Below are positions 38,401 to 41,400 of a stretch of 64,000 bases of DNA, in pieces. Position numbers: made by a program. Position 1 is the first letter of the stretch, and each line of letters opens with the position of its first letter. Origin of the DNA: Escherichia coli (GTDB lineage: Bacteria > Pseudomonadota > Gammaproteobacteria > Enterobacterales > Enterobacteriaceae); NCBI RefSeq assembly GCF_044324785.1, contig NZ_CP172127.1, one strand, 5' to 3'.

Positions 38401-41400
38401 GCACGTTATTTGATGAATGTAACGTGCTTTTTATTAAAAATATTTTAATAAACGGTAATGTTGATCATATTTTCAAATGAAAATCCTCAGTAAGCTGCCC
38501 GCCCTTTTTTACACTTTCAGGAGTGTGTTATGGCAGCTTCAACCTTTTTTATTCCTTCCGTGAATGTTATTGGTGCTGATTCATTGAATGATGCAATGAA
38601 TATGATGGCAGATTATGGATTTACCCGTACCTTAATTGTCACTGACAATATGTTAACGAAATTAGGTATGGCGGGTGATGTGCAAAAAGCACTGGAAGAA
38701 CGCAATATTTTTAGCGTTATTTATGATGGCACCCAACCTAACCCAACCACGGAAAACGTCGCCGCAGGTTTGAAATTACTTAAAGAAAATAATTGCGATA
38801 GCGTGATCTCCTTAGGCGGTGGTTCTCCGCACGACTGCGCAAAAGGTATTGCGCTGGTGGCAGCCAATGGCGGCGATATTCGCGATTACGAAGGCGTTGA
38901 TCGCTCTGCAAAACCGCAGCTGCCGATGATCGCCATCAATACCACGGCGGGTACGGCCTCTGAAATGACCCGTTTCTGCATCATCACTGACGAAGCGCGT
39001 CACATCAAAATGGCGATTGTGGATAAACATGTAACTCCGCTGCTTTCTGTCAATGACTCCTCTCTGATGGTCGGTATGCCGAAGTCACTGACCGCCGCAA
39101 CGGGTATGGATGCCTTAACGCACGCTATCGAAGCGTATGTTTCTATTGCCGCCACGCCGATCACTGACGCTTGTGCATTGAAAGCCGTGACCATGATTGC
39201 CGAAAACCTGCCGTTAGCCGTTGAAAATGGCAGCAATGCTAAAGCGCGTGAAGCAATGGCTTATGCCCAGTTCCTCGCTGGCATGGCATTCAACAACGCT
39301 TCTCTGGGTTATGTTCATGCGATGGCGCACCAGCTGGGCGGTTTCTACAATCTGCCGCACGGTGTATGTAACGCCGTTCTGCTGCCGCATGTTCAGGTAT
39401 TCAACAGCAAAGTCGCCGATGCGCGTCTGCGTGACTGTGCTGCTGCTATGGGCGTGAACGTGACAGGCAAAAATGACGCGGAAGGCGCAGAAGCGTGCAT
39501 CAATGCCATCCGTGAACTGGCGAAGAAAGTGAATATCCCGGCAGGCCTGCGTGACCTGAACGTGAAAGAAGAAGATATTCCAGTGCTGGCAACCAATGCC
39601 CTGAAAGATGCCTGCGGCTTTACTAACCCGCTCCAGGCAACTCACGAAGAAATTGTGGCGATTTATCGCGCCGCAATGTAATCATCATTCCCACAACGGC
39701 TGGCGAGTTGTCAGCCGCTTTTTCAACTATCTCAAAACTTGCTTTTTTTGAGATAGTTTCTCTTTCCTGCTATACACTATCTCAATATTGCGCTTTTTTG
39801 AGATAAGCACATGGCTATCAAATCACCTCCCGGACTTATTCCTTTATCACACTTATCGGGTGAGGAACTCCTGGCCCACCTGCGCTTTAACCGGGTTACC
39901 GATGAAAAAGGACGTTATCTGCCTTTTGATGAGTTGCAGTACCGCATCAAAAAAGGAGAAAACGTCGAAGTGGCGTGGACGCTTACCCGTCTGGCGCGCA
40001 ACGCGGCGATCCAACGAATCAATTATTGCAATGAAGCGGGTGAACAGGCCGGATTCAACATTACCCCGGTGATTGCAGAAGCGTGCGAGCTTGTCGACAA
40101 ACGTGCTACCGCGCTGGCGCTGAAAGATCAGACTGAACGGTTACGCGGGGCCGGAGCCGAGTTAAGTCAGTTACGCCTGGAAGAGCCAATCACCAGCTCC
40201 CAACTGGAAGGTGCGAATACCACAACGCTGGTGGCGAGAAAAATGCTGGAAACAGGGCGGTCGCCACGCACTGAAGACGAGCATATGATTGCGGGAAATG
40301 CCCGGCTGATGGCGGAAATTCCGCACTTACTCGCAGAGCCGCTAACACCTGCGCTTATTCGCCAGTTACATGCCATTGGTATGGGTGGAATCAATGACGC
40401 GAAATATCGTCCGGGAGAATTTCGTGAAACAGATGATGTTGTGATCGCCGACTATGACGGCAATATTGTGCACCAACCGCCCGCTGCGGCATTGTTGCCG
40501 GAACGGCTGGAAAAAGTTTGCCAGTGGCTAAACAGCCATGAAGGGTATATTCATCCGTTGGTCCGTGCCTGCATTCTGCATTTTATGCTGGCCCATGAAC
40601 ATCCGTTTCGGGATGGCAACGGGCGCACCAGTCGGGCGCTGTTTTACTGGTATATGCTGAAATCGGGCTACGATGTTTTTAAATATATTTCTATCAGCCG
40701 TTTGCTTCATGCTGCGCCAGTCAAATATGCTGCCAGCTACCAGTACACTGAATCAGACGGTATGGATCTGACTTATTTCCTTGATTATCAGGCGGGTGTC
40801 ATTAAACGCGCTCTGCATAACTGGCAGCAGCATATTGATGAAATTACACAACGAAGCGCAAAACTCGATAGTGTGCTGTTTAGCTCTGGTGTGCTTAAAC
40901 GCCTGAATCCGCGCCAGGTAACGCTCCTGAATGTGATGCTCGCTAATCTGGGGAAAGAGTACACAGTTGCTGAAATTAGCACGGGCCTGGGCGTCTCTGA
41001 TAATACGGCTCGAGCAGATTTACGGACGATTGTTAAAGAAGGATTTGCGCAAGAGAAGAAAATTAATGACCAGCAAGCAGTGTACGTCGCGCATTATCCG
41101 TTGTAACCCTTGCCCGTAAATTCGTGATTGCCGTCGAAAAGCTGTCACTGACTGGCGAAGATTTCGCCAGTCACGTCTACCCTTGTTATACCTCACACCG
41201 CAAGGAGACGATCATGACCAACAATCCCCCTTCAGCACGTGTTCAGCCCGGCGAGTATGGTTTTCCTCTTAAGTTAAAAGCCCGCTACGACAACTTTATC
41301 GGCGGCGAGTGGGTAGCCCCTGCCGACGGCGAGTATTACCAGAACCTGACGCCGGTGACCGGGCAGCTGCTGTGCGAAGTGGCGTCTTCGGGCAAACGAG

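Follow-up and report, generated by a model that had tools for sequence, protein, structure and literature searches.

Between yiaY and aldB in a 64,000-nucleotide stretch of an Escherichia coli genome (contig NZ_CP172127.1 of assembly GCF_044324785.1; hereafter the window) lies a gene, here called fic, whose 431-residue product is probably a one-protein, self-regulated Fic enzyme of the kind represented by SoFic and CccR, in a distinct subfamily with an N-terminal extension. An inhibitory helix, a Fic core and a C-terminal winged helix-turn-helix (wHTH) are carried on the one chain, and two palindromes that we take to be operators stand at the presumed promoter of the gene. Proteins that join a Fic domain to a wHTH rank with the most frequent predicted 'defence systems'. 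A preliminary description of the locus, made from the DNA alone, had recognized the Fic protein; it did not mention the paired palindromes or the additional domain at the N terminus.

Motifs, fold and relatives of the Fic protein

The fic open reading frame (ORF) runs on the forward strand from 39811 to 41106, opens with an ATG and encodes 431 residues. The parts of the protein, with the evidence for each, are as follows.

39811..41106, + strand: fic coding sequence, a class II Fic protein with a C-terminal wHTH (Pfam, PADLOC model, AlphaFold2 (AF2), Foldseek)
39811..40065, + strand: family-specific N-terminal domain, residues 1-85, three helices and a beta-hairpin
40066..40143, + strand: long helix, residues 86-111, positional counterpart of the SoFic/EcSofic dimerisation helix (AF2 secondary structure, alignment)
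40195..40212, + strand: inhibitory-helix motif S129-S-Q-L-E133-G134 (motif match, AF2, alignment to EcSofic)
40339..40653, + strand: Fic core, PF02661 match, residues 177-281 (Pfam)
40600..40635, + strand: catalytic Fic motif H264-PFRDGNGRTS-R275 (sequence motif, family alignment)
40891..41103, + strand: C-terminal wHTH, residues ~361-431 (AF2, weak helix-turn-helix (HTH) Pfam matches, Foldseek)
40999-41037, + strand: recognition helix D397-K409, opening with SDNTAR (AF2, motif-operator covariation)

The preliminary description had read 39811-41106 as a Fic-domain protein with a canonical motif at residues 264-275, and the profile search for a Fido domain bears this out: Pfam Fic (PF02661) matches residues 177-281 with E=1.7e-19 over model positions 1-92 of 93, and a Fido fold is returned by both AF2 and Foldseek. 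The motif itself, HPFRDGNGRTSR, fits the Fic consensus HxFx(D/E)GNGRxxR, and its residues H, F, D, G, N, G, R and R do not vary among 33 homologues with identities down to 40%. Equally invariant in this set is SSQLEG at residues 129-134, which fits [ST]xxxE[GN] and closes a predicted helix (residues 115-132) 43 residues ahead of the Pfam match, so the proposal of an SxxxEG inhibitory motif in the same chain and N-terminal to the core also holds. The mark of a class II Fic protein, in the Engel et al. 2012 classification, is a [ST]xxxE[GN] helix located N-terminal to the Fic core within one chain. Judged from its sequence, the fic product is such a class II protein, with the inhibitory helix preceding the core in the same polypeptide. 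A second match to the helix consensus, TIVKEG at residue 406, falls within the winged helix and is fortuitous. The class II scheme of Engel et al. 2012 is summarised in PMC12249575.

In the AF2 model, built on 33 homologues (mean predicted local distance difference test score (pLDDT) 88, predicted template modelling score (pTM) 0.83), the Fic core is helical, residues 115-132 form a helix ending in SxxxEG, and residues 367-427 form a winged helix with helix-helix-helix-strand-strand topology. A winged-helix-like C terminus had been suspected from the outset, and in addition to the model it receives weak Pfam matches from HTH families at residues 376-414, which are clearer in the homologue P0088 (HTH_DeoR, 3.3e-5). 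The Foldseek alignments to SoFic and CbFic2 extend over 350-363 columns and take in the C-terminal domain; the SoFic-like_C family (PF21248 / IPR048770) is not reported by Pfam for the fic protein and is faint in homologues (P0088, E=0.0056).

The PADLOC SoFic model (PDLC03963) matches residues 96-427 at profile positions 30-351 of 361 (E=1.3e-41, 141 bits). In a Foldseek search of the PDB a probability of 1.00 was obtained for 50 Fic structures; the top match is CbFic2 (8CIL, E = 5e-12), and SoFic (3ZCN/3EQX/3ZEC), Dde_2494 (4RGL) and CccR (7XUX) are also matched at probability 1.00, with identities of 18-21% across this group and target-normalised TM (template modelling) scores of 0.68-0.72 for SoFic and 0.56-0.57 for CbFic2 8CIL and CccR 7XUX. 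By sequence, the top PDB matches are FICD (2.6e-12) and the same bacterial Fic proteins, 7xux among them, while the NCBIfam scores for VbhT and Doc are negligible. The fic protein is 26% identical to EcSofic over a stretch of 227 residues; residue 85 aligns to EcSofic residue 24, SSQLEG to SSRIEN, and E133 to E70. These comparisons, together with an NCBIfam SoFic equivalog score far under its cut-off, indicate that the fic protein is of the same kind as SoFic without being its equivalog, and that it is a member of a distinct subfamily with an N-terminal extension. The protein is thus no orphan; it belongs with the SoFic-like proteins that combine Fic and wHTH, and the targets of its relatives are EF-Tu (SoFic), FtsZ (CccR) and host histone H3 (CbFic2).

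The extension is what sets the subfamily apart. Modelled alone, residues 1-112 have a pLDDT of 92 and form three helices and a beta-hairpin followed by the long helix 86-111. Residues 1-85 have no match in Pfam or the PDB, and the great majority of AFDB50 matches to the domain (E<=0.001) are Fic proteins of ~430-500 residues or their fragments. A profile of the domain searched against 1.84 billion representatives matched 300 clusters, always at the N terminus, and the matched proteins are either full-length (~425-530 residues) or short predicted proteins (mostly <150 residues, up to ~350). On the strength of these searches the domain appears to be found only in this Fic subfamily of ~430-455 residues. 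Conserved positions in the N-terminal region include P6, P7, D31, G34, R35, Y36, D40, R45, W56, R63 and D96. The long helix 86-111 aligns to EcSofic residues 24-50 and is presumably equivalent to the helix through which SoFic dimerises (L28-L50, immediately before the inhibitory helix).

Likeness to the characterised proteins goes only so far. SoFic (Shewanella oneidensis SO_4266/MloA; 3EQX, 3ZCN) shares the class II helix, the HPFxDGNGRxxR motif and the C-terminal wHTH, and both SoFic and EcSofic share a dimerisation helix, predicted in the fic protein, just before the inhibitory helix and are encoded by solitary genes, but they are without the ~60 extra N-terminal residues that form a domain in the fic protein. 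SoFic, EcSofic, CccR and CbFic2 have 358-380 residues and a catalytic histidine at 192-205, in contrast to H264 here, and have no counterpart of residues 1-85. SoFic is listed as a single-gene anti-phage system, and the SoFic tested against phage, and found to be defensive, is EcSofic of E. coli H397, whose 358-residue sequence is given in a supplement (10.1101/2022.05.11.491447). EcSofic is toxic, the toxicity requires H194 and dimerisation, and a 47-residue antitoxin, AS1, is described downstream of it, whereas no comparable ORF accompanies this fic; the small ORFs downstream of fic overlap fic or aldB and are not conserved. Neither did we find a conserved small ORF on either flank that could be an adjacent antitoxin gene, and the neighbours vary by context. 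FicT/FicA, VbhT/VbhA and Doc/Phd have the Fido fold and arrest growth by modifying an essential protein, but their inhibitory helix resides on a separate antitoxin, whereas fic carries its own and has no partner gene. Human FICD (HYPE) resembles the fic protein in the logic of its inhibitory glutamate and is bifunctional as AMPylase and deAMPylase, but it has tetratricopeptide repeats, a membrane anchor and no wHTH, and it dimerises via the Fic domain. CbFic2 (Coxiella burnetii CBU_0822; 8CIL) is also a class II Fic protein with a wHTH, and in it DNA binding and dimerisation toggle between AMPylation and deAMPylation.

Paired palindromes at the putative fic promoter

The interval between yiaY and the fic start codon contains the following elements.

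39697..39717, + strand: yiaY intrinsic terminator hairpin, the upstream limit of the fic module (9-bp stem with 6 GC pairs, then CTTTTTC; terminator scan)
39727..39756, no strand: operator O1, a perfect palindrome, CTATCTCAA-N12-TTGAGATAG (pattern search)
39748..39753, + strand: putative -35, TTGAGA (5/6 matches), inside the O1 right arm (direct reading and orthologues)
39771..39776, + strand: putative -10, TATACA (alternative TACACT at 39773-39778), abutting O2 (orthologue conservation)
39777..39806, no strand: operator O2, CTATCTCAA-N12-TTGAGATAA, with one mismatch (pattern search, orthologue comparison)

O1 and O2 are 30-bp palindromes positioned 50 bp apart, start to start, between the fic ATG and the yiaY terminator, the sequence of which is also present in K-12. 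The pattern CTATCTCAA-N12-TTGAGATAG has 2 matches in the 64 kb where 0.01 are expected, and both are at the fic promoter. O2 is found in 9/9 Enterobacterales orthologues, always with N12 and ending 3-7 nt before the ATG, and O1 lies upstream in 5/9 of the Enterobacterales contexts, with diverged spacers; among these orthologues the operator arms are 86-93% identical pairwise and the spacers 41%. The O1/O2 pair accompanies orthologues in a Salmonella integrative and conjugative element, in Pseudescherichia (between VF530 and nasR-like genes), in Pantoea and at a bgl-like operon locus, and the core ATCTCAA-N-TTGAGAT is kept in Klebsiella (48% amino acid identity) and in Pseudomonas asuensis (37%).

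The fic promoter presumably coincides with O1/O2, with transcription starting inside O2. Four orthologous loci (L083, L086, L088 and L095) have the same -35 arrangement, with 17-19 nt to a TATACT or TATAAC -10, and the -10 hexamers of orthologues at the same position relative to O2 are TATACT, TATAAC, TAAACT or TAAAAT.

Palindromes are a feature of the wider family. We sampled 28 loci of the family, drawn from two archaea and from Proteobacteria, Verrucomicrobia, Planctomycetes, Chlamydiae and Bacteroidetes; 21 have a palindrome within 100 nt upstream, taken as significant when matched by <=5% of dinucleotide shuffles. The half-site varies by clade, in step with the residues that open the recognition helix, as follows.

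Recognition helix (D/E/Y)NTA(R/S): half-site (A)TCTCAA or ACTCAA
Recognition helix Y(Q/E)TAR: half-site ACTAAT
Recognition helix YDTAR: half-site TACCA(A)
Recognition helix SNQTAK: half-site CTCCTAA

Covariation of this sort is what a cognate repressor-operator pair would predict, although it is confounded by phylogeny. In O1 and O2 the half-site centres of one palindrome are 21 bp (~71 A) apart, compared with 70.2 A between the DNA-binding helices of the CccR dimer. CccR (Yersinia pseudotuberculosis YPK_0951; 7XUX) is likewise a Fic-HTH protein with a palindrome at its own promoter, and the palindrome core, AGATA/TATCT, is also alike; it represses that promoter through the palindrome, which is near the -35 and -10. 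The CccR dimer binds one operator composed of AGATAATCAT-N26-inverted copy, whereas fic has two 9-N12-9 sites 50 bp apart. SoFic binds as a dimer to DNA ahead of its own gene, in the first 100 bp upstream. Given the conserved palindromes, their covariation with the recognition helix, and the experiments on CccR and SoFic as precedent, the winged helix most likely binds O1/O2-type palindromes and represses its own gene. In the DNA upstream of the tested EcSofic (10.1101/2022.05.11.491447, supplement) there is a several-fold repeat unit with ATCGACAC ... GTGTCGAT inverted repeats, and the short SoFic proteins may also have multi-copy operators of their own, of different sequence.

A protein with a DNA-binding domain could act more widely, and we considered whether the fic product is mainly a transcription factor, with its winged helix running a regulon, as reported for CccR, and its Fic domain serving as sensor or modulator. 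SoFic has been proposed to be a dual transcriptional and translational regulator, and the window has three further exact copies of the extended half-site TTGAGATAGCC, at 4373-4381 (-), 48353-48361 (-) and 51692-51700 (+), with 0.34 expected in total. These copies, however, are isolated, with no partner half-site within 3 mismatches; they apparently lie inside coding regions, encode G-Y-L-N on the other strand, and are probably due to chance or codon usage. Both full palindromes of the 64-kb window are at the gene's own promoter, the invariant catalytic and inhibitory motifs argue for a working enzyme, and a dispensable gene with a new context in each genus is unlike the master of a regulon. 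We therefore think a regulon-centred role rather improbable.

A different possibility is that the repeats act at the level of RNA, with the O2 arms forming a hairpin in the 5' untranslated region that hides the ribosome-binding site and throttles translation, and with the winged helix binding some other partner, or DNA non-specifically. The position of O2 fits this well, its right arm ending 3-7 nt before the ATG in every Enterobacterales orthologue and containing, in the window, the only Shine-Dalgarno-like sequence ahead of fic (GAGA, 39800-39803). The hairpin predicted for the O2 arms (-9 kcal/mol, z = -1.9) would cover this sequence, complementarity is kept while the palindrome sequence changes across clades, and CbFic2 binds DNA strongly and non-specifically. 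An RNA hairpin, however, does not require O1, which has the same sequence and is upstream of the likely -35, and the conserved -10-like hexamer abuts O2 such that a transcript would begin inside the left arm. Moreover, it is the arm sequence that is conserved and not pairing alone, and it tracks the recognition-helix motif, whereas the z-score of the fold is weak. In contrast to the largely non-specific binding of CbFic2, the fic palindromes are conserved and clade-specific, implying sequence-specific binding. Throttling of translation by such a hairpin is improbable as the explanation of the repeats, and we prefer the reading of O1 and O2 as DNA operators.

Loss and movement of fic

In K-12 MG1655 no gene separates yiaY (b3589) from aldB (b3588), and in a survey of alleles at the yiaY-aldB junction 1572 of the 5426 complete E. 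coli genomes (29%), O157:H7 included, carry fic. The gene is thus accessory and missing from this junction in K-12, as the preliminary description stated. The same description spoke of fic as inserted between yiaY and aldB, and for K-12 this has the polarity reversed. The missing segment is as follows.

39734..41101, no strand: 1368-bp segment missing in K-12-type genomes (alignments, exact anchors on both sides, MG1655 sequence)

At the K-12 junction, AACTATCTC|TGTAACCC, there remain 9 nt of the O1 left arm and the last 5 nt of fic, including the stop codon. A further 576 of the 5426 genomes (11%) have no fic but a whole orphan O1-like palindrome, followed by TATCTC|TGTAACCC. In TUM10828, which typifies them, the orphan operator (L098:4935-5012) is CTATCTCAA-N12-TTGAGAGAG, matching the window at 39727-39756 and, across the junction, at 41102. 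The orphan-operator scar and the shorter K-12 scar have one common right junction, TATCTC|TGTAACCC. Because remnants of both the operator and the end of fic persist, and because 576 genomes retain orphan operators, the K-12 state is a deletion and not an ancestral empty site; as read from these junctions, the empty yiaY-aldB sites are deletion scars and K-12 has lost fic. In a simple history, a single deletion would have reached from the left arm of O2 as far as the ORF's end, and a second loss, of 36 bp between two TATCTC repeats, would have given the K-12 form.

The location of fic differs in every genus and there are no mobility genes alongside, which implies an older acquisition. For sister species, synteny was taken from the contigs encoding homologues, protein by protein; across these orthologous loci no partner gene is conserved and the neighbours of fic are different in every genus. 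One Klebsiella homologue has a DUF927-family gene beside it and, in L093, tail-fibre-related genes downstream, and 19 plasmids have a near-full-length homologue. The matches listed from a contig scan with the patterns HPFxDGNGR and E[APS]I[ST]SSQLE are distant relatives, with no Enterobacterales among them. In Xenorhabdus khoisanae (L094:6206-7216) the long-form homologue is followed, ~800 bp downstream, by a shorter Fic-HTH gene of 336 residues that runs on the opposite strand, showing that the long and short Fic-wHTH forms can share a locus. A literature search for Fic together with yiaY or aldB found nothing relevant.

CccR has the same Fic plus wHTH architecture and autorepression, 7XUX is among both the sequence and the fold matches, and CccR, which a type VI secretion system (T6SS) secretes, AMPylates FtsZ; by analogy, the fic protein could be a T6SS-delivered effector that AMPylates FtsZ of competing bacteria. 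CccR is, however, encoded beside a T6SS effector cluster, has H192 as its catalytic residue and is without the N-terminal domain, whereas no T6SS or effector/immunity neighbours of fic are present in the window or in ten orthologous loci, and the homologues among the matches listed include archaea and phyla without T6SS. Secretion as an interbacterial weapon is in our view highly improbable. That fic is a decaying remnant, as its loss from ~70% of E. coli genomes and the truncated or fused database alleles P0002, P0075 and P0100 might suggest, is hardly credible either: the 431-residue ORF is undamaged, as are O1, O2 and all residues of catalysis and inhibition, the ratio of nonsynonymous to synonymous substitution rates (dN/dS) is 0.08 relative to the E. 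coli allele in L001, so the gene is intact and under purifying selection, and the full-length protein's 90% cluster comprises 1771 sequences.

The surroundings of fic vary as well. Identity to other E. coli alleles (L001, L002) is 95-96% in yiaY (38530-39681) and aldB (41214-42752), with 93-95% for the flanks. Values this low might point to a non-coli Escherichia, but the nearby upstream gene selB has 98% identity to E. coli, so the region of the fic site is simply divergent or recombinant. It differs unusually strongly between strains, which suggests recombination or old allelic lineages tied to the presence/absence polymorphism. Downstream of aldB the order is also variable, with yiaW-yiaV in the window and in K-12, and a GH127 glycoside hydrolase and a major facilitator superfamily transporter in other E. 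coli (L001:7334-9701, L098:6929-10198); TUM10828 has an additional HicAB toxin-antitoxin pair after aldB. At 41149-41173, 41 nt upstream of the aldB start, two perfectly matching 11-bp arms enclose a loop of 3 nt, TGACTGGCGAA-GAT-TTCGCCAGTCA; this inverted repeat is kept in fic+ genomes and K-12, with one arm mismatch in L001 and TUM10828. As no T-run follows, a terminator is less likely here than a binding site for an aldB regulator. The interval from fic to aldB has no predicted terminator, and read-through from fic into aldB is therefore possible.

A proposed mechanism and its implications

We propose that the fic protein dimerises through helix 86-111, and that each winged helix of the dimer binds one half-site of the same palindrome. 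With O1 occupied over the -35 and O2 over the transcription start, expression would stay low, while E133 would hold the Fic enzyme in a non-AMPylating, probably deAMPylating, state, as in its relatives. A cue, possibly received through the N-terminal domain or through a change of the dimer or DNA-bound state, would then permit AMP transfer. The AMPylated target would be an abundant essential host protein, and growth would stop; SoFic AMPylates and deAMPylates EF-Tu, halting translation. The DNA-dependent switch of CbFic2 is a plausible model for gating of fic activity by operator occupancy. Taken as a whole, this mechanism is, in our judgement, probably correct.

Most likely fic is a toxin or abortive-infection defence module that its host can do without and that moves horizontally. 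A role in defence is made plausible by the match to the SoFic model, by a distribution that is both mobile and patchy, and by the prophage-like setting in Klebsiella.

Several points weigh against this interpretation, the predicted O2 hairpin and the phylogenetic confounding of the covariation among them. The score for the NCBIfam SoFic equivalog (NF046030) is 39.7 bits, far below the cut-off of 550, and identity to every characterised relative is only 18-26%. An automatic promoter scan of the window made no call at the putative fic promoter, missing it because the E. coli -10, TATACA, is without the final T. About 70% of E. coli genomes are without fic, which we read as loss; no full-length homologue was found in phage records; and the window context is one of housekeeping genes (selA, selB, yiaY, aldB, yiaW and yiaV), with no defence island. 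'Toxin' may also be the wrong default, as wild-type SoFic is chiefly a deAMPylase. Its inhibitory glutamate is also required for deAMPylation, and the E73G substitution gave no simple gain in AMPylation. For this reason the corresponding E133G substitution, which the preliminary description had chosen for judging its reading by a gain of activity, does not give a clean criterion of refutation.

A bolder version of the proposal, which we regard as conceivable but unlikely, is that fic is a minimal one-protein immune or addiction module, in which the N-terminal domain senses a phage- or stress-derived cue and signals via the dimerisation and inhibitory helices, such that release from the two operators brings a burst of expression and, at the same time, displacement of E133 converts a deAMPylase into an AMPylase. 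If so, sensor, repressor, antitoxin and toxin would all be parts of one polypeptide, encoded by a 1.4-kb unit without a mobility gene, and the orphan operators that hundreds of E. coli genomes retain would be relics of a gene gained and lost repeatedly.

The architecture itself will be no surprise to specialists in Fic proteins or phage defence; what is useful is the operator/recognition-helix code, the orphan-operator scars and the N-terminal domain. Defence annotators will probably label fic as SoFic, despite only 26% identity to the tested EcSofic. The conserved N-terminal domain, missing in every characterised relative, is the obvious sensor candidate, and the covariation of half-site and recognition helix across phyla supplies a specificity code, ready for use, for winged helices of this class. 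E. coli itself provides a natural experiment, with isogenic-like alleles that have the gene (29%), an orphan operator (11%) or the minimal scar of the K-12 type.

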